From an uncultured virus (IMG/VR IMGVR_UViG_3300029305_011943) (Duplodnaviria; Heunggongvirae; Uroviricota; Caudoviricetes): a DNA stretch of 64,000 nucleotides. Positions 6,737-53,920 of this stretch are shown here, one piece after another; positions within the stretch are counted from its first letter, which is position 1; every line of letters starts with the position of its first letter. Where the stretch lies: IMG/VR virus record IMGVR_UViG_3300029305_011943, one strand, 5' to 3'. The notes below the pieces were generated by a model. It ran no database searches. It had not been told where the DNA came from and saw only the letters and a program-made list of their open reading frames with translations. Position numbers and translations under genes: made by a program.

Positions 6737-6781
6737 GACTTCTCAAACGCCCTCTCCCAGACTATATAGTAGTGGCTCTTT
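6737..6781 (+). repeat. 45-bp repeat copy 1 (candidate phage-specific promoter)
   Basis: 41/45 identical to 19219-19263; contains the palindrome ACTATATAGT. Confidence 0.8.
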
Positions 6782-6866
6782 CAAAGCCCCCATCTAAAAC
6801 GGCTGCGGTAGCTACTGCAGCCGTTCCACTTTATACATTGGTCTATGACCACAGAAAGGAATGCCT

Positions 6867-7689: not shown

Positions 7690-7703
7690 CCGGAGGTGAT
7701 CGG

Positions 7704-14677: not shown

Positions 14678-14774
14678 CCTTATACAGTCAGTATGATCTG
14701 CCCCTTATTGACGACAGAAAGACGGCAAAGCGGCGACAATTCGGTAACGCCGCATTATTTTGGAGGTGAAAAAT

Positions 14775-19218: not shown

Positions 19219-19263
19219 GACTTCTCAAACAGCCTCTCCCACACTATATAGTAGAGGCTCTTT
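19219..19263 (+). repeat. 45-bp repeat copy 2 (candidate phage-specific promoter)
   Basis: 41/45 identical to 6737-6781; directly upstream of the HNH gene. Confidence 0.8.
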
Positions 19264-21343: not shown

Positions 21344-21543
21344 CTGCGGACAAGGTGTATCACAGGCAGAGAGACGGCAGGAGCTGTCAGGCAGGCATCG
21401 TGAATGTCCTGCTGTGGGTGATGACGGATGCGTTTATCCGTGCGGATGCATTCCCGAACCCATACGGAGGTTTCGTGTAAGCCTCGGCACGGATAGGCAA
21501 TGTGATACAGCCGAACAAAAACACGGCAACACTTTGTCCGCAG
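21344..21543 (+). ncRNA. Candidate structured RNA in the nrdD leader
   Basis: Nested stems 21344-21358/21529-21543, 21357-21364/21501-21508, 21435-21443/21487-21495, plus several hairpins. Confidence 0.55.
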
Positions 21544-24177: not shown

Positions 24178-24473
24178 CAAAACAGAATATACGCTGCGAT
24201 GCCTGCGGCTGTGCCTTTGTTCCAGAGCCGAAAACGCAGCGTGAGGGCGAGATCGAATACAGCTACTTCAACTGCAACTACTGCGGTAAGGCGTATATGG
24301 TGTCTGTGACCGATGCGGCACTTCGCCGGAGCATCCGCAAATACCGGACGCTTTCCGAAAAGCTGAAAGGCAAGCCCGTGACAGAGCAGACGCTCCGTGA
24401 AGTAACGGCACTGAAGGATGCGAACGCAAAAAGAGCCGCAGAGCTGCGGCAGATGTATATACGGGAGGAATGA
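24174..24473 (+). CDS. Zn-ribbon hypothetical protein
   Basis: CDAC...CNYC; translationally coupled ORF. Confidence 0.65.
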   Translation: MTKQNIRCDACGCAFVPEPKTQREGEIEYSYFNCNYCGKAYMVSVTDAALRRSIRKYRTLSEKLKGKPVTEQTLREVTALKDANAKRAAELRQMYIREE

Positions 24474-24474
24474 A

Positions 24475-25746
24475 ATGAAAACAGCAGAACTTCGCATGAT
24501 CCCTGTCTCTGAGCTGAAGCCCGCGGAATACAACCCGCGTAAAAAGCTGAAGCCCGGAGACAAGGAATACGAAAAAATCAAAAACAGCATTGACGAATTC
24601 GGATTTGCCGATCCTCTTGTGGTCAATGCTGACATGACCATCATCGGCGGTCATCAGCGACTGACCGTAGCAATGGCTCTCGGCTACACGGAAGTACCGT
24701 GTGCGGTGGTAGACATCGACAAGGTGCGTGAGAAAGCTCTGAACATCGCCCTGAATAAAATTACAGGTGCATGGGACGAGAACCTTCTCGCTGAACTTCT
24801 GGAGGACATCCAGAACAGCGATTTCGACCTCGGCAAAACAGGCTTTGACCCGCCTGAGATCGAGCAGCTTTTCAATGCGGTGCATGACAAAAAGGTCTCC
24901 GAGGATAACTTCGATATCGAGGAGGAGCTTCAGAAGTCGACCTTCTCCAAACCGGGGGACATCTGGATTCTCGGCAGGCACAGAGTCATCTGCGGCGACA
25001 GTACAGTGGCAGAGACATACACAAAGCTTATGGACGGACAGAAAGCAAATCTGGTATTGACCGACCCGCCGTACAATGTGGATGTGGAGGAAACCGCCGG
25101 CAAGATCATGAACGACAACATGAGCGATTCGGATTTCTACAACTTCCTGCTTTCCGCCTATCAGTGTATGTATGACAGTCTTGCCGATGATGGCAGCATC
25201 TATGTCTGGCACGCCGACACCGAGGGGCTCAATTTCCGCAAGGCATTCAAGGACGCAGGTTTCCAGCTCTCCGGCTGCTGTATCTGGAAGAAAAATTCTC
25301 TCGTGCTGGGACGCAGCCCTTATCAGTGGATTCACGAGCCGTGTCTGTTCGGCTGGAAGCAGAAGGGCAAGCACCAGTGGTATGCCGACCGAAAACAGAC
25401 GACCGTCTGGGAATATGACAAGCCGAAAAGCAGTCCCGATCATCCGACCACAAAGCCCATACCGCTGATGGCATATCCGATCAAGAACAGCACCATGACA
25501 AACGGCATCGTGCTCGATCCGTTCCTCGGCTCCGGCTCTACGCTGGTCGCTTGCTGCGAAACTGACCGTGTCTGCCGAGGTATCGAGCTTGACCCGAAAT
25601 TCGTGGATGTCATTGTGAAGCGGTATCTTGCTTGGTGTCAGGAAAAGCAGACTGCCGAGGTCGCATATGTACTCCGTGACGGACAGAAGCTGTCATACGA
25701 GGAAGCGGTCGCAGCAATGCCACAGGACGGTGATGCTGTTGAGTGA
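24475..25746 (+). CDS. ParB-like N-terminal domain plus N6A/N4C DNA methyltransferase
   Basis: YNPR...IIGGHQR; TDPPYN; HPTTKP; LDPFLGSGST. Confidence 0.92.
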   Translation: MKTAELRMIPVSELKPAEYNPRKKLKPGDKEYEKIKNSIDEFGFADPLVVNADMTIIGGHQRLTVAMALGYTEVPCAVVDIDKVREKALNIALNKITGAWDENLLAELLEDIQNSDFDLGKTGFDPPEIEQLFNAVHDKKVSEDNFDIEEELQKSTFSKPGDIWILGRHRVICGDSTVAETYTKLMDGQKANLVLTDPPYNVDVEETAGKIMNDNMSDSDFYNFLLSAYQCMYDSLADDGSIYVWHADTEGLNFRKAFKDAGFQLSGCCIWKKNSLVLGRSPYQWIHEPCLFGWKQKGKHQWYADRKQTTVWEYDKPKSSPDHPTTKPIPLMAYPIKNSTMTNGIVLDPFLGSGSTLVACCETDRVCRGIELDPKFVDVIVKRYLAWCQEKQTAEVAYVLRDGQKLSYEEAVAAMPQDGDAVE

Positions 25747-26506
25747 AGTGAAATGCGTTCTCATACACGATAATTTCCAGAATTACAAGGGCTACAGCAT
25801 TCCGAGGGCGCAGCTTGTCATTGCGGATATCCCGTATAACATCGGCGGCGACTTTTACGCCAGCCGTCCCGACTGGTATGTGGACGGAGACAATCAGAAC
25901 GGTGAAAGCAGCAAGGCTCATAAGGCAGCCTTCCATACGGATTACAGTTTTAACATTGCTGAGTATTTCGCTTTCTGTAACCGACTGCTCAAAAAAGAGC
26001 CGTCCAAGGGAGAAAAGGATGCTCCTTGCATGGTCGTGTTTTGTGCATTCCAGCAGGTTCCGGAGGTTATCCGGCAGGCAGAGAAATACGGCTTTAAGCA
26101 CTACCAGTTTTTGTGCTTTATGAAGAATTACAGTCCGCAGGTGCTGAAGGCAAATATGAGGATCGTGGGTGCTACCGAATATGCACTGGTGCTGTATCGG
26201 GGTAAGCTGCCGAAGTTCCGCAACACCGATGCGGACGGCAAGCGGCATATGATCTTCGATCACTTCGACTGGTTGCGTGACGGCAAAAATATCCCGAAAA
26301 TACATCCGAGCCAGAAGCCGGTGAATCTGCTGAAACGCCTCATTGGGATATTTACCGATGAGGGTGATGTTGTCATCGACCCCTGCGCCGGAAGCGGCAG
26401 TACGCTGCGCGCGGCACGGGAGCTTGGCAGACACAGCTACGGCTTTGAGGTCAGCAGGGATTTCTATACCAAAGCCTGTGAGCAGATGCTCGGAGGTGCG
26501 GGATGA
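25733..26506 (+). CDS. N6A/N4C DNA methyltransferase (beta class)
   Basis: ADIPYN; HPSQKP; IDPCAGSGST. Confidence 0.9.
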   Translation: MLLSEVKCVLIHDNFQNYKGYSIPRAQLVIADIPYNIGGDFYASRPDWYVDGDNQNGESSKAHKAAFHTDYSFNIAEYFAFCNRLLKKEPSKGEKDAPCMVVFCAFQQVPEVIRQAEKYGFKHYQFLCFMKNYSPQVLKANMRIVGATEYALVLYRGKLPKFRNTDADGKRHMIFDHFDWLRDGKNIPKIHPSQKPVNLLKRLIGIFTDEGDVVIDPCAGSGSTLRAARELGRHSYGFEVSRDFYTKACEQMLGGAG

Positions 26507-26718
26507 CAAAACGGGAATGCGCAATCGTGACAGCATACACAGGTTTCTCCATGCTAAAGGGTAATGACCTCGGTCATCTGTACCGATATTTGTCGGGATT
26601 CATAGGCAGACCTGTGTATTCGCATGAGATTCCTGCGGTGGCGGAAGCATACAAAGATAAGATCAAAGAAGATTTCCTTGCCTTGTGCAGGGACGCAAAG
26701 GAGGCGGATGATGGATAA
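26503..26718 (+). CDS. Hypothetical protein
   Basis: Coupled 71-aa ORF with GGAGG RBS. Confidence 0.65.
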   Translation: MTKRECAIVTAYTGFSMLKGNDLGHLYRYLSGFIGRPVYSHEIPAVAEAYKDKIKEDFLALCRDAKEADDG

Positions 26719-29014
26719 AAAACAGTTGACGCTCGGGAGCCTGTTTGACGGATCGGGCGGCTTTCCCCTCGGCGGCATCCTTGCAGGGATCGAGCCGAAG
26801 TGGAGCAGCGAGATCGAACCGTTCCCGATTCTGGTAACGCACAGACGGCTTCCGGGCGTGAAGCATTACGGTGATGTGAGTAAGCTGAACGGTGCAGAGC
26901 TGCCGCCGGTGGATATCATCACATTCGGCAGCCCGTGTCAGGACCTGTCTATCGCAGGCAAGCGTGCAGGCATCCATGACGGAGACCGTTCAAACCTGTT
27001 CTTTCAGGCAATCCGCATCATCAGAGAAATGAGGGATGCAACAAATGGAGAATATCCGCGATACTGCATCTGGGAAAACGTCCCCGGTGCTTTCTCATCC
27101 AACGGAGGAAACGACTTCAAAGCTGTCCTCGAAGCAGTTATCGGAGTTAAAGAAAAAGGGATCGAGGTGCCTGCGCCTGCGAATCACAGATGGGCAAAAT
27201 CAGACGTATTTCTGGGAGACGGATGGAGCGTGGCTTACCGAGTTTTCGATGCTCAATACTGGGGTGTGCCCCAGCGAAGAGCAAGAATCTACCTTGTCGC
27301 AGATTTTGCTGGCGGAAGTGCCGGAGAAATATTATTTAAGTCCGAAGGCGTGTCTGGGTATACTCCGCAGGGCTTCCGTTCGTGGCAAGGAGCTGCCGGA
27401 GGTGCTGCGAAAAGCACTGGAGAGACAGGCGGGCGGTCTGACGCTGGAGGTGGAACCCTCTGCGTAAACTGTCAGGGTACGGCGGGTGTCGGTATAACAG
27501 AAGATAAGGCACTGGCACTTGTCGCACAGGATCACGGGAATCATCCTGCCGTTCTTGCCGCAGGTTTTTCCACGGAACATAGTGCAAAAGCACGAAGCAT
27601 CGGCTATGAGGAGGAAGTATCTCCTACACTGAGAGCCGGTGTCGTTCCTGCAGCAATGGAGCTTCAGAGCTATCCGGTTGAAAATCATCCCGCAGATTCG
27701 AGAGTTAAAGTACGTGAGGACGGAAAGTGTCAGGGGCTTACAGGCAGAATGGGAACAGGCGGCGGAAACGTACCGCTTGTAGCAGAACCGATTACGCTAA
27801 AAATCCGCAGTGGTGGTGGAAATGGTGGGAAGGGTGCTATCTGGCAGACCGATAAATCCGCAACTCTTGCAACCAATAATGACCAGACGCTTTTTCAGCC
27901 GGAGGTCAAGGCTTTCGGTGTATGCAGCAAGCACTCCAATGCGATGATGTCGGACAATCCGCACAGTGGATTCTATGAAGCGACTACAAGCAGAACGCTC
28001 GACCAGAGCGGCGGCAATTCCGTCACATCGAATCAGGGCGGCATCTGCGTGGTTGCTCCTGCACCGGAGACATTCGATGTACGTTTCACATCGGACGGAA
28101 CAAAAAACGCAAGAGGTCACTGCTACCAGACGGAGATCTCCCGATGCCTCGACACGAGCGAGGCAAATCCGGACAGCAATCACGGCGGTGTCGCTGTTGT
28201 TGCTCTTGAACCGGGTGCTGCATCGAGAGTCGGCGGTCACATCTACAGTGACGGCAAAAGCGGTACGCTTCGTGCAAATGCCGGAGATAATCAACAGGCT
28301 GTCGTAATGCCAGAAGCATTCTCCCTGCAAGGTTCGATGATCGGCAGAGCCGACAAGAACGGTCCGCAGGGTGACGGCATCAATGAGGGTGTCTGCTTTA
28401 CGCTCAATGCCACAGATCATCATGCGGTCGCAGCACCGGCAGAAGCTATCGCCATTTCCCGCGACAATCACTTCTCCGTTTCGGAAGGAGTGGCCGGGGC
28501 AGCGGTGGCAAGAGGACCTGCTTCCGTGGCCGTTCCCGAAGCAGACCACTACAGCACAAGCAAAAACTCGCATCATACGGTAGCCGCACACGAGCAGGCA
28601 AATACGCTGGTCGCTTCCGATTGGAAAGACCCGCCGCTTGTGAATGACCTGCCGAATGACAAGCCGGTGTATATCGTGCGCCGGCTGACTCCAGTGGAGT
28701 GTGCCCGTTTGCAGGGATTCCCGGACTGGTGGTGCGCCGACCTTGCCGATACAGACCCTTCCGATGAGGAAATCGCTTTCTGGACGGAGGTCTGGGAGAC
28801 ATGGCGGCAGCTCACCAATCCCAAGGGCAAGCCGAAAACCGAGAAGCAGATCCGCAAATGGCTGGCTGATCCGTACACGGATTCGGCAGAATACAAGCTA
28901 TGGGGTAACGGTATCTCCCTGCCGATTCCTTACTTTATCCTATCCGGCATTGCATGGGCAGCACAGATTTGCGAGCCTCATGCAGCAAATTGTGAACAGA
29001 CTGATACTATGTAA
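26711..29014 (+). CDS. C5 cytosine DNA methyltransferase with a very long repetitive variable region
   Basis: SLFDGSGG, FGSPCQD, WENVPG, PQRRARIY, RRLTPVECARLQGFPD, KLWGNG. Confidence 0.93.
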   Translation: MDKKQLTLGSLFDGSGGFPLGGILAGIEPKWSSEIEPFPILVTHRRLPGVKHYGDVSKLNGAELPPVDIITFGSPCQDLSIAGKRAGIHDGDRSNLFFQAIRIIREMRDATNGEYPRYCIWENVPGAFSSNGGNDFKAVLEAVIGVKEKGIEVPAPANHRWAKSDVFLGDGWSVAYRVFDAQYWGVPQRRARIYLVADFAGGSAGEILFKSEGVSGYTPQGFRSWQGAAGGAAKSTGETGGRSDAGGGTLCVNCQGTAGVGITEDKALALVAQDHGNHPAVLAAGFSTEHSAKARSIGYEEEVSPTLRAGVVPAAMELQSYPVENHPADSRVKVREDGKCQGLTGRMGTGGGNVPLVAEPITLKIRSGGGNGGKGAIWQTDKSATLATNNDQTLFQPEVKAFGVCSKHSNAMMSDNPHSGFYEATTSRTLDQSGGNSVTSNQGGICVVAPAPETFDVRFTSDGTKNARGHCYQTEISRCLDTSEANPDSNHGGVAVVALEPGAASRVGGHIYSDGKSGTLRANAGDNQQAVVMPEAFSLQGSMIGRADKNGPQGDGINEGVCFTLNATDHHAVAAPAEAIAISRDNHFSVSEGVAGAAVARGPASVAVPEADHYSTSKNSHHTVAAHEQANTLVASDWKDPPLVNDLPNDKPVYIVRRLTPVECARLQGFPDWWCADLADTDPSDEEIAFWTEVWETWRQLTNPKGKPKTEKQIRKWLADPYTDSAEYKLWGNGISLPIPYFILSGIAWAAQICEPHAANCEQTDTM
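27045..27467 (+). CDS. Out-of-frame nested ORF resembling the beta polypeptide of M.EcoHK31I-type methyltransferases
   Basis: Open alternative frame with GAGGG 9 nt before ATG; STLSQIL...YYLSPKACLGILRRA..RGKELP. Confidence 0.6.
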   Translation: MENIRDTASGKTSPVLSHPTEETTSKLSSKQLSELKKKGSRCLRLRITDGQNQTYFWETDGAWLTEFSMLNTGVCPSEEQESTLSQILLAEVPEKYYLSPKACLGILRRASVRGKELPEVLRKALERQAGGLTLEVEPSA

Positions 29015-29188
29015 GCTGTTCTTCGGAGGGTATCCGTGATATGCACAAACATAGCCGGATATCTTCCCTGTACATTCTCCGTTTTACAGTCTTGCATTCC
29101 GGGGCAAAAGACGGTAATATGTGACTACGAAAACGCCGCAGCCCAACGCACAAGGCTGAGGGGCGGCAGTAAAAACGGAGGTTATAAT

Positions 29189-30148
29189 ATGGAAATCAGA
29201 TTCAATATTGAAAAGAGCCAGCGCAAGGCACTGGCACTGAAAATCGCAGAGCTGACCGGAGCGGAGGCTAAATACATGGGTGTTCCAAGCTGCGCCTACG
29301 CAATTGACTTCTTCACGCTGAGCAAGGATTCGGTTCTCAGCTTCAGCGACCGCAGCGACACGGAGATCGTGGAGACGGTCCTGAACGGGCTTGCAGAAGC
29401 AGGCTACGACAGCGAGACCATAACACCGCCAGAGGGAACTGAAACCGAAGTAGACACCGATGACTATGTGGAAATCGACATGACCATTGTTTCCGACAAG
29501 GAAGAAACCGCTGAGGATGAACCTTCCGAACAGAGCAGCGGCTTTCCGCTGAACGCAAGCATCAGCCTTCCGATTTCAGAGCATACGGTGCAGACGCTGA
29601 TGAACCTCATCTGCATGATTCATTCCCGCGGAACACTGCTCTCCAAGGCGACCGGCGGAAACTTCTCCGCAGACAAGGCACTGATCGATGCCCTCGGTGA
29701 GCATGAGTTCCGCAGCATCCACGAGCTGATTGCTTTTCTCAGAGAATACGGCGAAACCAATCAGCCGCTGACCGGCATCACACTCGACAACGAGAAGATC
29801 ACCTTTGACGGCTTCGGTCAGGCGGCAGATGCCGAAACGGTGCAGACCTACATGAAGCTTGCCGCAGCAATGAACAGCATGGCAATGACGCAGAAGCGAG
29901 TGCAGGCAAAGGATGTCGATGACAGCAACGAAAAATATGCCTTCCGTGTCTGGCTCATCCGCCTCGGTATGAACGGATCTGAATACAAGGAAGACCGCAA
30001 ACGCCTGATGGCGAATCTTTCAGGGCATTCCGCTTTCCGCAACGACGCGGAGCGTGAACGCTGGGAAGCAAAGCAGAAGGCAAAGCGTGATGCTCAGAAA
30101 ACGGAACAAACCAACGAGGAGGAAGACAGCGATGCAGTTTCCGAATGA
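29189..30148 (+). CDS. Phage protein of the 'virulence-related protein' type, with an amidoligase-like C-terminus
   Basis: AKYMGVPSCAY; C-terminal NEKYAFRVWLIRLGM...LSGHSAFR shared with the amidoligase. Confidence 0.75.
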   Translation: MEIRFNIEKSQRKALALKIAELTGAEAKYMGVPSCAYAIDFFTLSKDSVLSFSDRSDTEIVETVLNGLAEAGYDSETITPPEGTETEVDTDDYVEIDMTIVSDKEETAEDEPSEQSSGFPLNASISLPISEHTVQTLMNLICMIHSRGTLLSKATGGNFSADKALIDALGEHEFRSIHELIAFLREYGETNQPLTGITLDNEKITFDGFGQAADAETVQTYMKLAAAMNSMAMTQKRVQAKDVDDSNEKYAFRVWLIRLGMNGSEYKEDRKRLMANLSGHSAFRNDAERERWEAKQKAKRDAQKTEQTNEEEDSDAVSE

Positions 30149-30380
30149 AAAAGAACTGAAAAGCCTGCGGGAGCGTTATCCCGCAGGTACCCTGATCCGT
30201 CTCATTAATATGGACGACCCCTTCGCACCTGTGCCGCCGGGAACAATCGGCGAAGTTACGATGGTCGATGACGCAGGCAATATTCATATGCGCTGGCGGA
30301 ACGGCAGAAGCCTTTCCCTTATAGAAGGTGTCGATGATTTCACTGTGATTTCTGACCGCAATGGGGGCTCCGAAAAATAA
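30132..30380 (+). CDS. DUF4314 family protein
   Basis: RYPAGTLIRLINMDDP...GTIGEV..VDDAGNIH..W.NGRSLSL. Confidence 0.85.
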   Translation: MQFPNEKELKSLRERYPAGTLIRLINMDDPFAPVPPGTIGEVTMVDDAGNIHMRWRNGRSLSLIEGVDDFTVISDRNGGSEK

Positions 30381-30403
30381 GAGACCCTATTCCATCGTAT
30401 CCA

Positions 30404-30432
30404 AGTTTACCATAAAAAGTCAAGGATATCAA
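30404..30432 (-). promoter_or_regulatory. Antisense-oriented sigmaA promoter candidate
   Basis: Minus strand TTGATA-17 bp-TAAACT, with extended -10 TG. Confidence 0.5.
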
Positions 30433-30577
30433 GTATGTAAAATCACCAGAGAATCGAGAAAAATACACTCAAATGATCTGTACATTTAGCGGCTTGATAT
30501 ATCCTCCGAAAGACGGTAATATGTGACACAACGGAAGGGCAAACGCCCACCGAAAAAACGATTCGGAGGATACAAAA

Positions 30578-31522
30578 ATGACTGAGAAGACCGCACAGCA
30601 GATTGCAAGAATGAAGGAGCAGACCATTGGGGTTGAGATTGAGATGAACAGCATCACCCGCAAGGCTGCCGCAAAGCTCGCCGCCGAGTTCTTCGGCACC
30701 GACCGCACCGAGTACACAGGCAGCCGCAACGGCTACGAAACCTACAGCGCATGGGACGCACAGGGCAGAGAATGGAAATTCCAGAAGGACGTCAGCATCG
30801 CAGGCCCCGACAGCGAAAAGTGCGAACTGGTCACCCCGATTCTGACCTACGCAGACATCGAAACCCTGCAGGAGCTTGTGAGAAGACTTCGCAAGGCAGG
30901 CGCAAAGAGCGACTACACAAGAGGATGCGGAGTTCACATTCACATCGGAGCGCAGGGACACACACCGCAGAGCCTCAGAAACCTCGCAAACCTGATGGCA
31001 AGCCACGAAACGCTGATCGCCGAGGCAATCAAGGTTGACAGCAGCAGAATGAACCGCTACTGCAGAACGGTCAACCCGAATTTCCTCGCACAGCTCAACA
31101 ACAAAAAGCCGAGAACGATGGCGCAGCTTGCAGACATCTGGTACGGTTCGCAGGGATGCAACTACGGCAGAACCCACCACTACAACGACAGCAGATACCA
31201 CATGCTGAACCTCCACGCAACCTTTACGAAGGGCACGGTTGAATTCCGCCTTTTCCAATTCGCGCCTCCTTCGGGCGGCAAGAAGAACGGCCTCCACGCA
31301 GGCAAGCTCAAGAGCTACATTCAGCTTTGCCTCGCACTGAGCCAGGCGGCAAAGGACCTCAGAAGCGCAAGCCCCAAGGAACAGCAGAAAGAAAACAAAA
31401 AGTTCGCAATGAGAACCTGGCTGATGAGACTGGGCTTCATCGGGGACGAATTCGCAACGGCAAGAGAAACCTTGACCGAGAACCTTACAGGCGACAACGC
31501 ATTCCGCTTCGGCAGACCTTAA
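30578..31522 (+). CDS. Putative amidoligase (COOH-NH2 ligase type 2)
   Basis: IGVEIEM, DVSI, ELVTPIL, CGVHIHIG, RYHMLN, TVEFRLF. Confidence 0.88.
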   Translation: MTEKTAQQIARMKEQTIGVEIEMNSITRKAAAKLAAEFFGTDRTEYTGSRNGYETYSAWDAQGREWKFQKDVSIAGPDSEKCELVTPILTYADIETLQELVRRLRKAGAKSDYTRGCGVHIHIGAQGHTPQSLRNLANLMASHETLIAEAIKVDSSRMNRYCRTVNPNFLAQLNNKKPRTMAQLADIWYGSQGCNYGRTHHYNDSRYHMLNLHATFTKGTVEFRLFQFAPPSGGKKNGLHAGKLKSYIQLCLALSQAAKDLRSASPKEQQKENKKFAMRTWLMRLGFIGDEFATARETLTENLTGDNAFRFGRP

Positions 31523-31808
31523 CGGGTCTGCCCCTGCGGGGCGGAAACACAAGCGGAACGGTACAGCGGCGCACACAGCCGCCACCTTGCCCCGTGTGGG
31601 GCGGGACGGGTATCCTCCGAATCATTACCCCCAAACACCTGCCAAGCCACAGGGCGCGACACGGCGCGAGTGTGGGCAAGTCATAAAATGCACGATCCAC
31701 GTCGAAAAATCGCCAGGAATGATCTGTACATTTAGCCGCTTGAATAATGAGCCGAAAAGAGTTAATATGTCACTACCGAAAGGAAAACCACCGAAAGGAG
31801 CCCTGAAC

Positions 31809-32063
31809 ATGACAAGCAAAGAACATATTGAAAGCCTGCGCCGCCACGGAGTACGCCTTCTCAGACAGGACGGAACGACCAAGGAAATCCCCGAAGACTT
31901 CCTCGAAACGACCACCAAGATGCTCAGCGACATCCACGCAAGGAAAATCACCTACAGCATCAAGGTACCCGAAACCGAGGACGAGATGCTTCTTGCGATC
32001 TGGGACTGCGGATACGCTGAATCCGGCAGCGCAGACGAGATCCTCAGCCACAACGACCGCTGA
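31809..32063 (+). CDS. Hypothetical protein
   Basis: AAGGAG RBS after a promoter repeat. Confidence 0.7.
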   Translation: MTSKEHIESLRRHGVRLLRQDGTTKEIPEDFLETTTKMLSDIHARKITYSIKVPETEDEMLLAIWDCGYAESGSADEILSHNDR

Positions 32064-32122
32064 AACCAAAGCCGCCAGCCTCCTACGGGAGGCAAGGGCG
32101 GAAAACAGAAAGGAAGAAGTAC

Positions 32123-32575
32123 ATGAACAAGTATTACTTAGCCTACGGCTCGAACCTGAACATCCACCAGATGCGGTTCCGTTGCCCGACAGCAAAGCCC
32201 ATTGGCACGGCAATAATCCCCGGCTACGAGCTACTCTACAAGGGCAGCCGAGCCTGCGCCTTCCTCACCATCGAGCCGAAGAACGGCAGCGAGGTTCCGG
32301 TTGCAGTGTGGGAAGTGACCGCCGATGATGAAGCCCGCCTTGATGCCTACGAGGGCTTCCCGAACTTCTACTACCGCAAGGAGATGCAGGTCAAGGTCAG
32401 GATGGAAGACGGCAAGGTCAGGGAGCTTCCCGCCTTCATCTACATCATGCACGAGAAGAATCCGCTCGGCAGACCTTCTCCGCATTACATCCGCACCTGC
32501 AAGGAAGGTTATCGCGACTTCGGATTCGATGAGAAGTACCTTGACGAAGCCTATGAAAAAAGCGCAAAGGAGTGA
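32123..32575 (+). CDS. Gamma-glutamylcyclotransferase (AIG2-like), copy 1
   Basis: YLAYGSNLN...RCP...LDAYEG.P.FY. Confidence 0.9.
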   Translation: MNKYYLAYGSNLNIHQMRFRCPTAKPIGTAIIPGYELLYKGSRACAFLTIEPKNGSEVPVAVWEVTADDEARLDAYEGFPNFYYRKEMQVKVRMEDGKVRELPAFIYIMHEKNPLGRPSPHYIRTCKEGYRDFGFDEKYLDEAYEKSAKE

Positions 32576-32580
32576 GCAGC

Positions 32581-32784
32581 ATGAAAGAGAGAATGACCGA
32601 ACAGCGTACATGCCCAAAGTGCGGACGCAGATACACCGAGCGACCTGCACTTTCCCGATACGACAACAACACGCTGATCTGCCCTGACTGCGGCACGAGA
32701 GAAGCTCTCGAAAGTATGGGCATCAGCGTCGAAGAACAGGACAAGATCCTCGGAATCATCCACGACAAGTACGTTCCCGAATAA
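32581..32784 (+). CDS. Small Zn-finger protein
   Basis: CPKCG...PALSR.DN...ICPDCGTREAL. Confidence 0.75.
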   Translation: MKERMTEQRTCPKCGRRYTERPALSRYDNNTLICPDCGTREALESMGISVEEQDKILGIIHDKYVPE

Positions 32785-33033
32785 GGGGGCGAAGAACGGG
32801 CGGTGTGGGGCTTTACGGCTCTGCACCGCTTACTTGTCGGCTGGATTACGGGCGCGACACGGCGCGTTTGTGAGCCTCCTGTATGGCATTGGTATATGTA
32901 CCAGTCTGGCAGCAGAAAAGCTCTGATTCTTCTACGATTTATTTTGCACATAGGCGTGGACTTATCGGGCGAAAAGAGTTAATATACAGATGCCGAAAGG
33001 CAAAGAACAAACCGAAAACAGGAGGAAAACACC

Positions 33034-33504
33034 ATGAACACTACTTACTTTGACGAGATGACCGCAAACTGCGCCGCCTACGAGAGAGCCAAGAAGGAGC
33101 GTGCGGAGCGCAAGCAGGAGATCATCAAGAACCACGGCATCGACAGCCTGGAGATGGATGCATGGTACGCCGAGGAAAAGGCGGCAGGACCGTACCCCTA
33201 CAGCAGCGGCGAGATGAAAGCCTACTGGGTTTTCAAGAACCGCCGAGAAAACGACAACGACGAGTTCGAGATGACCGACTACTGCTGGGAGCGTGAGTAC
33301 CACGATTTCATCGAAACACTCCGCAAGCTCGGAGTCAAAGAGTTTACAATCACAACAAAATCGACAGGTCTGATGGACGACCTTTACGGATACACCGCCG
33401 AGGGCTGCACGATGAAGGGGCTGCACACCGTCACAAAGAAAGCACTGCGCTGGGGCGAGGAGCAATACGAAGAAAGCAAGGGCATCCTTTTCAAGATCAA
33501 CTGA
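33034..33504 (+). CDS. Hypothetical phage protein (DUF7698-like)
   Basis: IETLRKLGVKEFTITTKSTGLM; GGAGG RBS after a promoter repeat. Confidence 0.7.
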   Translation: MNTTYFDEMTANCAAYERAKKERAERKQEIIKNHGIDSLEMDAWYAEEKAAGPYPYSSGEMKAYWVFKNRRENDNDEFEMTDYCWEREYHDFIETLRKLGVKEFTITTKSTGLMDDLYGYTAEGCTMKGLHTVTKKALRWGEEQYEESKGILFKIN

Positions 33505-33571
33505 AAACCGACCGCAAAGGGGCAGGCTTCACCGCCTGCCCTACAAGCGGAGCAGAACGGAGGTGAACCGA

Positions 33572-33769
33572 ATGTCAATAATCGTAATTGTGGTCGAAGG
33601 CGGTCTGGTGCAGGAAGTTTTCAGCACCGAGAAAGACACCGATGTTGAATTGCTCGACTTTGATACCGAAGAAGGACAGGCGGCGGAAGCGGACATCAAA
33701 ATGCCGGAACATAAGGTATGGCGATACACATATTATCAACAAGAAACAGCGCAGATACGCCAATTATGA
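33572..33769 (+). CDS. Hypothetical protein
   Basis: IVIVVEGGLVQEV; GGAGGTG RBS. Confidence 0.6.
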   Translation: MSIIVIVVEGGLVQEVFSTEKDTDVELLDFDTEEGQAAEADIKMPEHKVWRYTYYQQETAQIRQL

Positions 33770-33870
33770 TCTGTACATTTAGCCGCTTGATAATTCTTGC
33801 AAGTGACGGTAATATGGGTACAACGGAACGGGCGCAGCCCACCGGAATACACCTAAACGGAGGAATTACC

Positions 33871-34191
33871 ATGAACCCTTATAAGCTGAGAGAACACCTG
33901 AACCTGACCGATGCAAACACAGCGATCACCCGCGAGGACTTCGAGAGCCTCTTCTGCAAGACCGCCGAGCGAATCACCTTCACCTTCAACGGCTGGGACG
34001 GCAAAAGCTACGACGGCGAAAGCCGCAGCGGTTATGTGTACCGCACCATCATAGAGGGCTACGAGAATGTGAGATTTATCAAGGTCGGCAAGGGGCTGCA
34101 CTACATCGACGAAGACAGTAGCATCACCGAGAAGGCAACAGGCATCGCCCACAAGGAAGCCGAGTGGCTGGTCGATGTGAAAAGAGCCTGA
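33871..34191 (+). CDS. Hypothetical protein
   Basis: GGAGG RBS after a promoter repeat. Confidence 0.75.
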   Translation: MNPYKLREHLNLTDANTAITREDFESLFCKTAERITFTFNGWDGKSYDGESRSGYVYRTIIEGYENVRFIKVGKGLHYIDEDSSITEKATGIAHKEAEWLVDVKRA

Positions 34192-34385
34192 GTGCAGACA
34201 CCATTCCAACGGCAAGGGCTGACTCGATCAGCCCTCCGTGAAATGGTGCAGTATGTACAACAAACATAGCAGATACGCCGATTATGATCTGTACATTTAG
34301 CCGCTTGATATCGTGCGGAATCAGAGTTATAATGTCGCTACCGAAGGGAAAACCTCGGAATTACATTCTTTTGGAGGATTCAAAA

Positions 34386-34823
34386 ATGGAAAACTACTAC
34401 GACATGAACGGCTTCAGGGTTCACTTCCGCATCGCAGACTACGCTTCCGACCCGATGGTCATGGCGATCACCGCAGCCGCAGAGGATGACGAGTTCGATA
34501 TGGTGCTTACGGTCAACATCGGCAGCAGCATCGGAAACGGCACACTGCTCCCGCGCAACTGCGCATTCATCGACACCAATAACAACCCGACCGCAGAAGA
34601 ATTTCTGCAGACCATCGGCGCAAAGCAGTATGAACGCTTCGGAGAGCCGGTCTACGGATACAGCGGCTTCTGCCGCTATCCGCTTTACGAATTCCCGGAT
34701 GACCTTCTCAGGGAAATGGATGCGGGCGGCTACGAAAAGCACTGCAAGAGCTACGGCGGTGCGTTTCTTATGGCACAGCGCAGAATGAACGCTGAGATGT
34801 TCGGAGCAGACCTTTTCGGATAA
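34386..34823 (+). CDS. Hypothetical protein (DUF4313-like)
   Basis: LTVNI...AFIDTNN...SGFCRYPLYEF. Confidence 0.7.
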   Translation: MENYYDMNGFRVHFRIADYASDPMVMAITAAAEDDEFDMVLTVNIGSSIGNGTLLPRNCAFIDTNNNPTAEEFLQTIGAKQYERFGEPVYGYSGFCRYPLYEFPDDLLREMDAGGYEKHCKSYGGAFLMAQRRMNAEMFGADLFG

Positions 34824-35008
34824 ACCGCGATCGGATACAGCCCCTTCAGGGGCTGTTCTCCGACGGGGCGTTATGTACAAGAAACCGCGCAGATACGCCC
34901 GAAATGATCTGTACATTCAGCCGCTTGATATATTTTGCATAAGACGGTAATATGTGACACAACGGAAGGCAGAGAGCCGACCTAAAAACAAAAACGGAGG
35001 AAAAATAC

Positions 35009-35392
35009 ATGAGCACGAATTCAAGAATCGGGATCCTGCACGAGGACGGGACAACGAAAACGATCTACTGCCACTGGGACGGCTACCCCGAGCATCAGAT
35101 GCCGATCCTCACCGGGCACTACGACACCGCCGAAAAGGTACGGGCGCTGCTTGCGCTCGGAGACATCAGCAGCCTCGGCGAACGCATCGTACCCGATGCC
35201 GATGAGCCGCACAGCTTTGAGAAACCTGCCGAGGGCGTGACGGTAGCCTACCACCGAGACCGCAAAGAGCCGATGAGCCCGGCAGTCACCCACAAGAGCA
35301 TTATTTCCCTGATGAGCGATTACTGGGGCATCCCTTACTACTACCTTTTCGATGAGAAAAAGGGGGCATGGATCCCGCCGACCGAGGGCTGA
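35009..35392 (+). CDS. Conserved phage hypothetical protein
   Basis: MSTNSRIG...IYCHWDGYP...LGDISSL...AYHRDR. Confidence 0.8.
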   Translation: MSTNSRIGILHEDGTTKTIYCHWDGYPEHQMPILTGHYDTAEKVRALLALGDISSLGERIVPDADEPHSFEKPAEGVTVAYHRDRKEPMSPAVTHKSIISLMSDYWGIPYYYLFDEKKGAWIPPTEG

Positions 35393-35568
35393 TCTTCAGC
35401 CCTTCGGGGCTGTTCCCGTACATAGTGTCATGTGAACAATTCCTGCGAAAATACGCCGATTTTGTTCTGTACATTTAGCCGCTTGCATTCCGGGAGAGAT
35501 CATGGTAATATGTGACACAACGGAAGGGCAGACAGCCCGCCGAAAACAAAAAACGGAGGTACATCACC

Positions 35569-35934
35569 ATGACAAAGAAGGAAATGAAAGCCGCAGTTGA
35601 CAAGCTGAAGATGCTGCAGAACGGCAAGGCAGCCCTTGAGGGAATGACCGAAGCAGACTGCCTTGAGCTTTTCGGGATCAGCAGAGCCCAGGCGCTTGCG
35701 AACACCAACGCAGCCCTCGCCAAAACCGAGCAGGAGATCTTCAGAGCCGAGCATCCGCTGACTGGCATCGACAAGAAGCTCTTCGAGATTGCAGCCAAGC
35801 ACATGGTCACAGTGCAGGAGCGCGGAGACCTTGAAGCCCGCCACTGCGACAGCGAGGACTTCATCGAGATTCCGGTCTGGGGACTGGAAGCCGCCCTCAA
35901 GGATGCCTACGAGGCAGGACGCAAGAGCAAGTAA
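35569..35934 (+). CDS. DUF6900-like protein, copy 1
   Basis: LEARHCDSEDFIEIPVWGLEAALKDAYEAG. Confidence 0.7.
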   Translation: MTKKEMKAAVDKLKMLQNGKAALEGMTEADCLELFGISRAQALANTNAALAKTEQEIFRAEHPLTGIDKKLFEIAAKHMVTVQERGDLEARHCDSEDFIEIPVWGLEAALKDAYEAGRKSK

Positions 35935-35993
35935 AAAAACGGCGCTGCCCTTCCTGAAATACGGAAGGGCGCATGCCGAACAGGAGGAAAAAC

Positions 35994-36170
35994 ATGGATA
36001 CATACACACAGCTTGAAATGCTGACGTCAGTCATCGCCAATCTGCCCGAAAGCGGAGCATGGACGGAGCGTGACGTGATGGAAACGCTTCTGGAGGTTTT
36101 TGAACCGCAGGAGCTTACCGAGATTGGATACGGCGACCGGGTGAGTGCTTACCTGAAAGAATACGGCTGA
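35994..36170 (+). CDS. Hypothetical protein
   Basis: AGGAGG RBS, 58-aa ORF. Confidence 0.65.
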   Translation: MDTYTQLEMLTSVIANLPESGAWTERDVMETLLEVFEPQELTEIGYGDRVSAYLKEYG

Positions 36171-36418
36171 TTGCACACTCCCGCACCACGTTCGCTTGTG
36201 TGGGGCTTTTCATGGCGGCAGCGGATAACTTGCCCCTGCGAAAAGACGCCCCACACAGCGCGTTTGTGCGCATTCTGTGCGATGTACAATTCCGCCTGAA
36301 TCATCGGCTCATGTTTGTCACATTTATTTTGCGGAAAGGCGTGGACTTTTCCCAGAAAAGACGGTAATATGTGCATACCGCAAGCGAAGCGGAATCAAAA
36401 CCAAAGGAGCGAATCTAC

Positions 36419-36772
36419 ATGAAAATTCTGGTATGCGAACCCGGCAAGCACCCCTACGTCAAGGAGATTGAACACACGCTGGAGAACCTGCAGAAAGAGG
36501 TCGGCGGATACATTCAGGCGCTGTACCCCTTCGAGGAGGAGGTCGCAGTGGTGTGCAACGAGGAGGGACTTTTCATTGAGGGACTGCAATGGAACAGAAC
36601 AGTCGAGAAGTACGGTCCGATCAAAGGTACCTTCTTCGTCTGCGGACTCGGAGTCGAGGATTTTACCGGGCTGACCGATGAACAGGCTGAAAAGTACAAG
36701 GCACTTTTCTGGGAGCCTGAGATCTTCATCCCGACACCCAACGGCATGGTGGTACTCCACATCGTAGAGTAA
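36419..36772 (+). CDS. DUF3846 family protein
   Basis: LENLQKEVGGYIQ...VCNEEG...IKGTFFVCG. Confidence 0.85.
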   Translation: MKILVCEPGKHPYVKEIEHTLENLQKEVGGYIQALYPFEEEVAVVCNEEGLFIEGLQWNRTVEKYGPIKGTFFVCGLGVEDFTGLTDEQAEKYKALFWEPEIFIPTPNGMVVLHIVE

Positions 36773-36979
36773 AAAATAGGGGCAGGGCTGCGGTTCTGCC
36801 CCATCTCCGTATCGATTTCCGGTGCATTTTTCTGCCGCTATAATATGTACAATTCCTGCGGAAATTCACCGTTTTTCTTCTGTACATTTAGCCGCTTGAT
36901 AAATTTTGCTAAAAGAGTTACTATGTACACAACGGAAGGGCAAAGCCCACCGAAACAACGAAAAGCGGAGGAAAAAACA

Positions 36980-37324
36980 ATGATCAGCTACGGATTGGCA
37001 AAGGCAAGAGCAATGGCAGGCAGAGACGACTGGAACGCACGTGAGGCGATCAGAAGCGCCACGATCCTTTGGTACGACACCGAGGAGGAAGGCTACGAAC
37101 TGGAGGTCGAGAACGAGGACGACCTCAACGCAGAGGACTTCAGAGCATGGGTCGAGGAGAACGCCGACAGCCTTGCACAGGAAGACGCCGCTGCAAACGG
37201 CACGACCTTCGAGGGCATCGAGGAGATCGACTACGAAACCGAATGGATCGACGATGACGCCCTTTTCGAGGCAGAATACGCAGATGCCTGCGAAAGCGAA
37301 TGGGAATGGATGACCGGCAGATGA
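36980..37324 (+). CDS. Highly acidic small protein (DNA-mimic candidate)
   Basis: Asp/Glu-rich throughout; GGAGG RBS after a promoter repeat. Confidence 0.7.
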   Translation: MISYGLAKARAMAGRDDWNAREAIRSATILWYDTEEEGYELEVENEDDLNAEDFRAWVEENADSLAQEDAAANGTTFEGIEEIDYETEWIDDDALFEAEYADACESEWEWMTGR

Positions 37325-37577
37325 GCCGGTCGCCCCACCGGGGCGGCACAGAGCCGCCCTGTGGCGGGGATGCAGGAAGAGACGCATACGGATGCCATAT
37401 CCGCCAAAGCCTCACACAGCGCAACCGTGCGCGTTTGTGGGCAAGGCATGATCTACACAATATAGCCTGCAAAAAAAGGCGTACATTCGTGATTACTCAC
37501 GCTTGATAAAATGTTCATTCAGAGTTATCATGTTCCTAATGAAACGGGCAGATGCCCGAAAGAAAGGAACGAAAACT

Positions 37578-38045
37578 ATGAGCAAGAAAAGATACTACCT
37601 AGCCTACGGCAGCAACATGAACTACGGACAGATGCAGGCACGATGCCCCGATGCAAAGCCGGTCGGAACGGCACTCCTCCTCGGATACGAGCTGCTGTTC
37701 AAGGTCAGCAAAACTGGCGCATACCTCACCATTGAAAAGAAGAAAGGCGGATGCGTTCCGCTTGCGGTGTGGGAGGTCAGTGCCGCCGATGAGAGAAACC
37801 TCGATCGCTGCGAGGGATGCCCCACATACTACTACAAGAAAGAGATGCGGCTTCCCGTTGAACGCTTCGCCAGCGGCAGAACGACCAAGACAAATGCCTT
37901 CATCTACATTATGCACGAGTACCGCCGATTTGGCATTCCGACAGGAAGATACCTTTACGGCTGTGTGAAGGGATACCGCACATTCGGCTTTGACCCGAAG
38001 TACCTCTACGATGCCTTTGAACGCTCCGCAAGCTACACATTTTGA
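37578..38045 (+). CDS. Gamma-glutamylcyclotransferase (AIG2-like), copy 2
   Basis: YLAYGSNMN...RCP...LDRCEG.P.YY; paralogue of 32123. Confidence 0.9.
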   Translation: MSKKRYYLAYGSNMNYGQMQARCPDAKPVGTALLLGYELLFKVSKTGAYLTIEKKKGGCVPLAVWEVSAADERNLDRCEGCPTYYYKKEMRLPVERFASGRTTKTNAFIYIMHEYRRFGIPTGRYLYGCVKGYRTFGFDPKYLYDAFERSASYTF

Positions 38046-38188
38046 ATGTACATAATGCCCGCATAAACCGTGAAATGCGGCTGAATGATTGTGATTACTC
38101 ACGCTTGATAACAGCCGCAGATCATGGTAATATGTGTACAACGGAAGGGAAAACGCCCTGACGAATTCATAAAACGGAGGATACGAAC

Positions 38189-38344
38189 ATGAAAAACATC
38201 ACGAAGAAGGAACTGAACCGCATTGCCAAGGAGTACGGCTACGATCCGCAGTACCTTGAGGATCAGGTCCTCGACTGGGAGAGCGACGGCATCAAGGTGG
38301 ATGCGCAGGACCTCGAAGACTACTGTGCAAACGGCGACATCTGA
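38189..38344 (+). CDS. 51-aa acidic protein (absent from the ORF track)
   Basis: GGAGG RBS after a promoter repeat; MKNITKKELNRIAKEYGYDPQYLEDQVLDWESDGIKVDAQDLEDYCANGDI. Confidence 0.75.
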   Translation: MKNITKKELNRIAKEYGYDPQYLEDQVLDWESDGIKVDAQDLEDYCANGDI

Positions 38345-38399
38345 AAACAGCCGCCGTCCTTCTTCGGAGGGGCGGCATCAAAACAAAGGAGTGCATACC

Positions 38400-38609
38400 A
38401 TGAACGATGAGATCAGAGCGCAGCTTGAGGAGATCGCCATTGAGGAATCCTACGGTATCCGCTTTGCGGGAGGACTCACACCTTACGGCGAAAAAGACGA
38501 TCCCTACGATGATACCAATGCCGAGCATAACTTTCCGGGCATCAGTCTTCGTGAAGTAAGCCGAATGCTGGAACGAGCCTACTCGCTGGGCAGGCAGAGC
38601 AAGGAATAA
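38400..38609 (+). CDS. DUF6900-like protein, copy 2 (diverged)
   Basis: LEEIA...MLERAYSLGR resembles the C-terminus of 35569; AAGGAG RBS. Confidence 0.55.
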   Translation: MNDEIRAQLEEIAIEESYGIRFAGGLTPYGEKDDPYDDTNAEHNFPGISLREVSRMLERAYSLGRQSKE

Positions 38610-38898
38610 GCGCAGCCCCTTCGGGGGCTGTTCTTCGTATCGCCGCCTGTTTGTGCCGCGTTCGCTCGTGTGGCGGCTATCGGCATCGCTTCGGATAACT
38701 TGCCCATGCGGAATGCCGCCCCACACGTCGCGTTCTGGCGCGTTTTAGGGGGAAGGCATAATGTACACAACAACAGGTGAAAAATCGCCATGCACATTCT
38801 GGTAGTTTAGCCGCTTGATATAATTTCCATTCAGAGTTATACTGTGTACAACGGCAAGGGAAACCGAGCCGAAAACAAGAAAAGCGGAGGAAAACACT

Positions 38899-39123
38899 AT
38901 GTGGACTCAGGATACCATTACCTACAACGGAAAGACTTACAGATACGCAGTCAAGCATTTTGAGGAACCCAGCGAATTTGGATACGATGAGGGCAGAGCC
39001 TCAAAGATTTGGATCGAGCGGGACGGCAAGACGGTTTTCAATTACGACCGCGGGATGGACATCAAGGCGGCAGACAAAGACACCAAGGCAGTACTTGAGA
39101 TGCTCCTGAAAAAGTTCAACTGA
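38899..39123 (+). CDS. Hypothetical phage protein (DUF7678-like)
   Basis: KHFEEPSEFG...GRASK...NYDRG.DI. Confidence 0.75.
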   Translation: MWTQDTITYNGKTYRYAVKHFEEPSEFGYDEGRASKIWIERDGKTVFNYDRGMDIKAADKDTKAVLEMLLKKFN

Positions 39124-39193
39124 GCAGCATACGGGCATGGCAGCCAATTGGCTGCCCTCTGCTCTTTCCTCCGCTGCGAAGGGAGGTGAAAAC

Positions 39194-39454
39194 ATGGGAG
39201 CAATCAGCGATATATATCATGGACGGCTTGGCCCTACACACATCGTCGGTCAGGATAACAAGGAGTATCACGACCTGCTGAATGAATGCAGCCGACTGCG
39301 GGATGAACTGGAGAAGCGGCTGTCGGAGGAAGATAATGCAGTGCTGCAGGAAATATACGGGCTGCAGGCACAGCTTTCTTCCATTGAGATGGAGCAGAAT
39401 TACTCCGAAGGATTCCGAGACGGCGCAAGGCTCATGAACGATGTGCTGAAATAA
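39194..39454 (+). CDS. Hypothetical protein (DUF6809-like)
   Basis: ISDIYHG...EGFRDGARLM; GGAGGTG RBS. Confidence 0.65.
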   Translation: MGAISDIYHGRLGPTHIVGQDNKEYHDLLNECSRLRDELEKRLSEEDNAVLQEIYGLQAQLSSIEMEQNYSEGFRDGARLMNDVLK

Positions 39455-39474
39455 GCGGAACAAAATACATAGAT

Positions 39475-39506
39475 GAGAGCTTACGATTTCGTAGGCTCTT
39501 TTCTTT
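39475..39506 (+). terminator. Rho-independent terminator closing the accessory array
   Basis: GAGAGCTTACG-attt-CGTAGGCTCTT followed by a T-rich tract. Confidence 0.75.
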
Positions 39507-53910: not shown

Positions 53911-53920
53911 TCGTTTCTCC

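Follow-up and report, generated by a model that had tools for sequence, protein, structure and literature searches.

A 64,000-nt stretch of DNA from an uncultured virus (IMG/VR record IMGVR_UViG_3300029305_011943; hereafter the window) carries, between its DNA methylase genes and its packaging genes, an array of 13 small gene units, each headed by a copy of one homologous control module. We interpret this array as what is probably a plastic accessory-gene region built from 13 autonomous expression cassettes, comparable to the promoter/stem-loop (PeSL) cassettes or the morons of other phages. The 64-kb window represents nearly the whole genome of a temperate siphophage of Ruminococcus/Oscillospiraceae from the gut, related to Candidatus (Ca.) Heliusvirales.

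A profile built from the 13 copies of the module (nhmmer) gave 13 matches in the window with E-values of 4.6e-19 to 2.2e-35, all of them on the + strand and inside 29026-38901, and none in the rest of the window. Module 1 (29026-29191; E 1.5e-21) has a degenerate upstream box and the -35 hexamer TTGCAT at 29092, module 2 (30432-30580; E 1.2e-28) has its -35 at 30494, and module 3 (31671-31811; E 8.7e-26) combines TTGAAT at 31740 with a second type of leader (type II). Module 4 (32890-33036; E 7.3e-21) belongs to a sub-type with AT-rich upstream sequence and has TGGACT at 32957; it is followed by module 5 (33723-33873, -35 at 33787; E 1.2e-32), module 6 (34238-34388, -35 at 34305, with TATAAT as its -10 hexamer; E 2.3e-25), module 7 (34859-35011, -35 at 34925; E 2.2e-35) and module 8 (35418-35571, -35 TTGCAT at 35483; E 2.6e-32). 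Module 9 (36266-36421; E 4.6e-19) is again of the AT-rich sub-type, with TGGACT at 36342, and precedes module 10 (36831-36982, -35 at 36896; E 2.2e-34), modules 11 (37436-37580, -35 at 37503; E 9.9e-20) and 12 (38040-38191, -35 at 38105; E 3.4e-26), both of the GTGATTACTCACGC sub-type, and module 13 (38746-38901, -35 at 38815; E 5.5e-28).

The anatomy of these copies is that of a sigma-A-type promoter with a shared leader, in line with the promoter/operator/leader module of a first-pass annotation of this DNA, whose 13 -35 coordinates were all correct. The 17-bp spacer that it had described is present in 13/13 modules and is followed by a TA...T hexamer, which is TAATAT in nine of them. The tabulated -35 hexamers were TTGATA in seven modules (two of these with another upstream type), TTGCAT in two, TTGAAT in one and TGGACT in two, and the distance from the -35 to the ATG was 84 nt in six of the 13 modules (range 69-97). 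The exact pattern TTGATA-N17-TAATAT was matched four times against 0.00 expected, and the 19-mer upstream of the -35 seven times at up to three mismatches against 0.01 expected. The three upstream sub-types previously distinguished were likewise all real in our site table of the 13 modules: two modules have an AT-rich upstream stretch and a weaker -35, two others carry GTGATTACTCACGC, and the copies with a -35 at 29092 and 38815 belong to the TTAGCCGC type in degenerate form. The promoter core comprises the -35, the 17-bp spacer, an ATG/TRTG-like -16 region (extended -10) and the -10 TAATAT. A logo pooled from 233 of 236 unique modules at 139 loci, fetched by exact match to one upstream box, peaks at the -35, the -16 region, the -10, the transcript start and the ribosome site.

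Two boxes lie upstream of this core, the distal one around ATGTACAA and the proximal one TCTGTACATTTAGCCGC, with one or two TGTACA boxes per module. The array spacers (3,091 nt) contain 17 copies of TGTACA and the array coding sequence none, with 13 in the other 53 kb. None was found within 1-7711, which includes the region of the CI-like repressor gene (333-1247, minus strand), the first in the window being at 7712, and we therefore rejected these boxes as CI operators.

Five of the 13 modules are preceded by an imperfect, GC-rich hairpin of about 95 nt, at 31581-31684 (before module 3), 32802-32883 (module 4; fold z -4.1), 36186-36279 (module 9; z -3.6), 37354-37440 (module 11; z -2.7) and 38655-38749 (module 13; recognised by a single fold and the profile), all on the + strand; three of the five fold with z of -2.7 or lower. 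A profile of this hairpin found 200 copies in 58 sources, 191 of which lie directly 5' of a same-strand module; the long hairpin is an optional 5' extension of the module, tied to the module that follows rather than to the gene that precedes it. RNAalifold on MAFFT alignments (82 of 94 type-I leaders; 87 long-hairpin copies) gave no consensus structure, and per-sequence folds were used for this reason, the structure of the long hairpin being that of single folds. GC-rich hairpins also occur 3' of 14 of the 20 array genes, including genes inside units; the array hairpins mostly have no T run, and the final one alone matches a terminator scan.

The commoner leader (type I) begins with an invariant ACAACG, within a conserved transcript start ACAACGG, and its hairpin has two tiers (CGG / inner stem / CCG). 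Per-sequence folding produced a hairpin in all 94 unique type-I leaders and the two-tier form in 80, with a median z of -3.9 relative to shuffled sequences. These leaders use 18 different inner helices, so that pairing is kept while the letters vary. The second leader type has no clear hairpin. On the 3' side of the leader hairpin follow an A-rich linker, a GGAGG ribosome site and the ATG. An Rfam scan of the array returned no family, even at E-values up to 1.

The array had been described as about 20 genes in 13 units, and we recovered 20 open reading frames (ORFs) with Shine-Dalgarno sites that form exactly 13 units of one to three small genes, all on the + strand. Unit 1 (29189-30380) holds g01 (319 aa, amidoligase-like, PHROG 2443) and g02 (DUF4314, 82 aa), which starts at 30132 and overlaps the end of g01; unit 2 (30578-31522) holds g03 (Amidoligase_2, 314 aa, Pfam E 1e-55); and unit 3 (31809-32784) holds g04 (84 aa), the GGACT protein gene g05 (150 aa) and the zinc-ribbon gene g06 (67 aa). 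Then come unit 4 (33034-33769) with g07 (DUF7698, 156 aa) and g08 (65 aa), unit 5 (33871-34191) with g09 (106 aa, no family), unit 6 (34386-34823) with g10 (DUF4313, 145 aa), unit 7 (35009-35392) with g11 (127 aa, PHROG 1987), and unit 8 (35569-36170) with g12 (DUF6900, 121 aa) and g13 (58 aa). The remainder are unit 9 (36419-36772; g14, DUF3846, 117 aa, Pfam E 1.4e-31), unit 10 (36980-37324; g15, 114 aa, net charge -28, pI 4.05), unit 11 (37578-38045; g16, a GGACT paralogue of 155 aa), unit 12 (38189-38609; g17, 51 aa, and g18, 69 aa) and unit 13 (38899-39454; g19, DUF7678, 74 aa, and g20, DUF6809, 86 aa).

Eight of the cargo proteins have no Pfam family. Of the dispersed paralogues proposed in the first-pass annotation, the two GGACT/GGCT proteins stand (g05 and g16, 56% identical), but the pair of DUF6900 proteins does not, as Pfam passes g12 only and g18 resembles it weakly (E 0.69 over 35 aa). 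A further relationship, absent from that annotation, links g01 and g03 through a common C-terminal region of 70 aa (E 3e-11). Net charge is negative in 15 of the 20 proteins, reaching -26 in g01, and g15 has only unnamed viral clusters as look-alikes in the ESM Atlas. The g06 gene (32581-32784, +) is conserved in both phage lineages described below; its product scores 29.3 bits against the Pfam TFIIB-type ribbon (cut-off 29), and one ESM Atlas cluster of look-alikes has, in 13% of its members, the zinc ribbon of Mu Com, an RNA-binding translational activator, which is a weak lead. None of the 20 cargo proteins matched a DNA-binding family; among them, g04, g08, g09, g13, g17 and g18 are small and family-less. 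PADLOC and NCBIfam gave no informative match for the cargo and tied it to no known family of defence or counter-defence; that the proteins act in counter-defence is a guess, though a reasonable one in view of their size and charge and the neighbouring methylases. The coding strand of the region is unusually A-rich, with an AT skew of 0.19-0.34 in the array (29000-39500) versus about 0.07-0.16 in its flanks.

Arrays of this kind are widespread. The exact 19-mer of the proximal box was present in at least 150 IMG/VR stretches, and an 18-mer of the same box in 45 stretches of genome contigs. Most of the latter are from Ruminococcus and Oscillospiraceae; one is the complete genome of Ruminococcus callidus ATCC 27760, which has two array-bearing prophages of 5-7 modules each. 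A few records carry the label Bacteroidota or Planctomycetota; these are metagenome bins, and we take them to be binning errors. The relatives fall into lineage A, with a TerL at least 92% identical to that of the window and 8-15 modules per array, and lineage B, with a TerL about 62% identical and 4-7 modules per array. Wherever both flanks are present, in either lineage, the array is bordered by the C5 methylase on one side and the terminase on the other, without exception. Four lineage A loci (L015, L116, L142 and L169) also have a reverse-oriented module 5' of the C5 methylase, where the window has none. The central 2.8 kb of the array (34238-37000) had no DNA match in 72,556 plasmid records, nor in the GenBank phage collection at blastn sensitivity; for a wider stretch, only the amidoligase and TerL parts matched, in eight phage records. 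No published description of the module was found in the literature searched, supplements excluded.

The proposal that units are gained, lost and shuffled agrees with what is seen among these relatives, in which units are gained, lost, replaced and sometimes reordered. The order of a backbone (g01-g02, g03 ... g19, terminase) is largely kept, and examples of reordering include a swap of g09 and g10 in locus L166 and a g15-like unit in last place in L015 and L031. In 24 chosen arrays, 164 of 173 modules were closer to a module of another genome than to any in their own, and for 109 of the 139 modules with a labelled downstream gene, the nearest neighbour in another genome had the same gene downstream. 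The modules of the window share at best 54-72% identity with one another versus 75-99% with their nearest module elsewhere. Orthologous modules are thus more alike than copies in the same genome, which implies that a module belongs to its downstream gene; concerted evolution was rejected because the nearest neighbours lie in other genomes. Modules can also be mosaic, as in that of g07, whose upstream half is common with relatives and whose leader is different.

The expectation that breakpoints would fall at the repeats held in part. Comparison of the window with 16 lineage A loci (alignments of at least 300 bp and at least 80% identity) gave 91 ends of homology, 27 of which lie in the upstream part of modules (9.3% of array length), but most of the others lie at gene ends: five fall in the promoter core (3.6% of the length), six in the leader (7.7%) and 53 elsewhere (79.5%), mostly at stop or start codons. 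Across ten lineage A arrays, the commonest right neighbour was kept in 39/63 cases across a module versus 58/69 without one (Fisher p 0.005), and over all 27 arrays the removal of singleton families gave 93/153 versus 110/151 (p 0.029), in tests that are indicative only, as the ORF caller used for the relatives was crude and the arrays are related rather than independent samples.

Contigs from four RNA-library runs (X15-X18), which cover parts of the array and its flanks and are uninformative elsewhere, join matching positions of different modules (34906 to 35462; 38808 back to 35480; 36954 to 33021), and loose contig ends begin at the 5' edge of modules 8, 10 and 13. Logan assemblies use a 31-letter word. 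Because the exact repeats are shorter than 31 letters, we read these joints as real variant arrangements in related phages, a reading that contigs cannot prove. The array is a plastic accessory region that appears to evolve by the gain, loss and replacement of whole cassettes.

The 3' border of the array is a terminator before terS, as previously annotated: it lies at 39475-39500 (+), with an 11-bp stem, a T run and a fold z of -3.0. It is the sole feature in the 74 nt between g20 and terS, where no promoter-like sequence was seen. Lineage A relatives keep this terminator along with terS, including those in which another cassette precedes it, and homology to relatives begins at 39462-39465 in five loci. 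Lineage B has another layout, in which a module-like promoter is followed by a conserved leader of about 95 nt and a canonical intrinsic terminator abutting the TerL ribosome site (L182:8088-8205, minus strand, with the same placement in L002, L007, L014, L018, L022, L027, L065, L165 and L185); among the 42 distinct sequences listed with a module about 100 nt before TerL, every one that was readable has this layout. In one of the R. callidus ATCC 27760 prophages, a weak module-like promoter (nhmmer E 7.6e-8) also lies within about 130 nt upstream of a large serine recombinase gene with Resolvase, Recombinase and zinc-ribbon domains (L181:6692-8245, minus strand). The presence of module-like promoters at the late operon and at this recombinase argues against a purely early class, and the module looks like a general expression module of this phage group. 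The late genes probably depend on read-through of the terminator.

From this anatomy, and from its conservation and variation among relatives, we infer the promoter activity, the role of the hairpins, the regulatory input and the route of recombination as follows. Host RNA polymerase would start about 7 nt after the -10, the hairpin in the 5' leader and the purine tract would stabilise the mRNA, and the strong GGAGG ribosome site would drive translation. The long hairpin would probably stop incoming transcription, with hairpins insulating neighbouring cassettes from one another, and the last terminator would gate entry to the late operon. The common upstream boxes may give all cassettes a single input through contacts with a regulator or with the polymerase, and whole cassettes would be gained, lost or replaced at the conserved borders. 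In its -35, its 17-bp spacing and the ATG-G that precedes the -10, the module matches a Gram-positive promoter of the housekeeping type.

Several observations weigh against this account. The promoter activity of the module is predicted from its sequence, and the RNA-library contigs give no starts, ends, strand or level. The -10 is TAATAT across the 233 modules versus TATAAT in the phage's own early promoters, which are divergent, lie at about 1380-1480 beside the CI-like repressor gene, share the 14-mer ATGTGTTATAATAC in inverted orientation and have a TG extension. In the R. callidus chromosome, the core with GGTAATATG occurs rarely (five matches versus two in the control), and the phage encodes two sigma-70-family proteins from paralogous genes (4997-5743 and 5956-6720, both +) that score above the NCBIfam TIGR02937 cut-off and have Pfam region 4 hits. 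Because TAATAT differs from the early TATAAT and the motif is rare in the host, recognition of the modules by a phage factor is possible. The evidence for exchange at module borders has counterweights of its own, in that the ends of homology favour conserved sequence, some indels lie within units where there is no module (e.g., g05, g13 and g17/g18), and the contrast in adjacency is weak over all 27 arrays (74/125 versus 114/175, p 0.33). Conservation of the upstream box in the pooled logo is inflated because its loci were fetched by an exact match to that box. A separate idea, that the module is a general promoter type of the host, was rejected, as the R. callidus genome has only five matches. 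At an E-value of 1e-6, no regulators are common to lineages A and B, and their early regions share almost none; since the module is common to both lineages, the factor, if any, would come from the host or from a conserved part of the phage.

Other readings of the array may be considered beside that of autonomous cassettes. A possible, if unlikely, one is an early burst regulon, in which strong promoters held by a common repressor on the TGTACA boxes would release anti-defence or host-takeover products on entry or induction. The upstream boxes are common to the cassettes and highly enriched, three methylases and an S-adenosylmethionine (SAM) synthetase adjoin the array, and the small, mostly acidic cargo (15/20 net negative) would suit this role, for which the p576-type plasmid system (PMC8708921) offers a model and Aca-controlled anti-CRISPR operons a further analogue. 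However, no repressor gene was recognised in the array, the TGTACA boxes are absent from the CI region and appear only from 7712, and four of the 13 modules have other upstream sub-types. The module-like promoters that head the late operon and the serine recombinase of lineage B, and the lack of any match between the cargo and known defence-related families, also speak against such a regulon.

A further possibility, which we regard as quite unlikely, is that the modules load an antitermination factor or RNA onto polymerase by way of the boxes, the transcript start and the leader hairpin. Each promoter would otherwise make its own cassette only, and at late times up to 13 promoters would feed read-through of the cassette hairpins and the conserved terminator into terS and the lysis genes, an arrangement resembled by the PR'-tR'-Q system of lambda. 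Such a launch pad would be consistent with the terminator that is kept with terS below differing cassettes, with the promoter-free 74 nt before terS, with the promoter, leader and terminator before TerL in lineage B and with the conserved transcript start and leader hairpin. Against it, no Q-, N- or LoaP-like protein was found among the ORFs scanned, there is almost no overlap in regulators between the early regions of lineages A and B, and the leader hairpin may simply stabilise mRNA. It is similarly doubtful that the modules are loading sites coupling the cassettes to the lytic programme, where a factor acting on the boxes, the transcript start or the leader hairpin would switch all 13 cassettes and open the terS terminator. 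The zinc ribbon encoded by g06 is one candidate lead for this loading factor. If this were true, the array would be both a variable gene store and a multi-promoter driver of the 22-kb late operon.

We also consider it very unlikely that the modules form a middle or late promoter class for one of the two phage sigma factors rather than for host sigma A. Lineage A relatives retain both sigma-70-family genes, the -10 conserved over the 233 modules is TAATAT and not TATAAT, and the motif is rare in the host chromosome, but the -35, the 17-bp spacer and the -16 region fit the housekeeping type, and lineage B (the R. callidus prophages) has the module and only weak 181-aa region 4 matches (E about 8e-4). 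A better candidate for a phage-sigma class is a 36-nt motif, GACTTCTCAAAC ... ACTATATAGTAG, found on the + strand at 6737-6772 and 19219-19254 with 0 mismatches at the specified positions. Its two copies precede replication genes and an HNH gene, it was not found in a lineage B prophage, and it may represent a second promoter class, perhaps for a phage sigma.

The integron-like array suggested in the first-pass annotation, here taken to have the long hairpins and TGTACA boxes as sites for a site-specific recombinase, is extremely improbable: imperfect hairpins of about 95 nt do lie at cassette junctions, homology breaks cluster near the boxes and cassette order varies (as in the g09/g10 swap of L166), but each cassette has its own promoter, modules stay and travel with their downstream genes, the long hairpin is found at only five of the 13 junctions of the window, backbone order is largely conserved, indels also fall at plain gene borders, and neither a tyrosine recombinase nor any other recombinase was found among the window ORFs scanned (Pfam, PHROGs), although the window may not hold the integration gene.

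Among known systems, the closest kind to these autonomous cassettes is the PeSL cassette of T4-type phages, likened here by kind and not by homology. In PeSL cassettes, a strong sigma-70-type promoter is combined with a stem-loop ahead of small genes; the motifs lie in plastic parts of the genome, and exchanges occur at them (Arbiol et al. 2010, PMC2839356; Comeau et al. 2014, PMC4122927). The array shares with this description a repeated motif of predicted promoter and ribosome site, with a candidate stem-loop, before small genes of unknown function in a plastic region, a predicted sigma-70-type promoter consensus (in 13/13 repeats) and indels or replacements between relatives that are bordered by repeats, here also at plain gene ends. 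It differs from PeSLs in being unrelated to them in sequence and in belonging to a temperate siphophage of a Gram-positive anaerobe. Its stem-loop is upstream of the promoter or after the gene rather than within the promoter, the module has a conserved transcribed leader with its own hairpin, and the modules are old orthologues, 54-72% alike within the genome.

The morons of lambdoid phages are reportedly, after Hendrix and colleagues, autonomous promoter-gene-terminator units between phage genes. The cassette architecture fits this description, as does the placement of autonomous units next to the late region, and presence or absence among relatives suggests that cassettes may be dispensable; unlike morons, which are single unrelated insertions, the 13 units stand in a row with one homologous control module. 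The host-takeover module of SPO1, as Stewart et al. are said to have described it, consists of small genes with many similar strong sigma-A promoters and strong ribosome sites. It has in common with the array a cluster of small genes with many similar sigma-A-type promoters, predicted in our case, but SPO1 is lytic and carries its early module in the terminal redundancy, whereas the array abuts the packaging genes.

Integron cassettes are promoterless; each terminates in attC, and they depend on IntI and on a single Pc promoter. The array resembles them as a tandem of small same-strand cassettes with structured DNA between, but attC, IntI (among the window ORFs scanned) and a single Pc promoter, the defining features, were not found, the absence of attC-like parts at the array junctions being that of a comparison in which the attC core motifs were not sought formally. 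EGeRS1 and EGeRS2, the pLS20-family establishment regulons (PMC8708921), resemble the module in that variable accessory operons each lie behind the same conserved regulatory sequence. The systems differ in being those of plasmids, in the length of EGeRS1 (400-600 bp, without a strong sigma-A promoter) and in the autoregulated ribbon-helix-helix repressor that EGeRS2 needs and of which none was found here. Lastly, the stoperators of cluster A mycobacteriophages are asymmetric, genome-wide and bound by the immunity repressor (PMC9283540). Like the upstream box they are short motifs repeated in the intergenic DNA of a temperate phage; unlike them the box is palindromic, is restricted to the array and does not occur in the repressor region.

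In the window as a whole, the sigma genes are followed by a replication module, the genes for SAM synthetase and the anaerobic ribonucleotide reductase NrdD (nrdD at 21566-23713), three DNA methylase genes (24418-29014) directly 5' of the array, and the array itself, with terS, TerL, portal, head, tail and lysis genes on its 3' side. One relative in GenBank is arranged in the same way and is listed under Ca. Heliusvirales. The paper on this group gives methylase and SAM synthetase as common genes, and in its main text the words promoter, intergenic and amidoligase do not occur (PMC11283538). Upstream of DUF7768 and the sigma genes, the spacer at 4031-4292 (+) contains three to four inverted repeats TCCACCCC-N5/6-GGGGTGGA that look like operators of some regulator. 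A PemK/MazF-like toxin domain gene (14760-15278, +) lies between helicase and primase in the replication module, and a drum RNA (Rfam RF02958) at 21416-21529 (+), with 45.1 bits versus a gathering score of 43, lies directly 5' of nrdD. Genes for a NUDIX hydrolase and a GIY-YIG domain protein (53446-54649) occupy the opposite strand (-) between the tape-measure and distal-tail genes.

The module provides naturally replicated variants of a promoter, a 5' leader and a ribosome site, ready for use in Ruminococcus and Oscillospiraceae, gut anaerobes for which few genetic parts are available. The array marks the store of exchangeable genes of a widespread group of gut phages, and a DNA profile can therefore harvest hundreds of small accessory genes, which could be used in screens for counter-defence or host modification. 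The layout of promoter, leader and terminator before the late genes offers a testable entry into the timing of lysis, and such tests are practical in R. callidus ATCC 27760, which is in culture and carries two prophages of this kind. Cassette shuffling at repeated regulatory motifs, a trait of lytic T4-type phages with Gram-negative hosts, would also operate in temperate phages that infect Gram-positive anaerobes.

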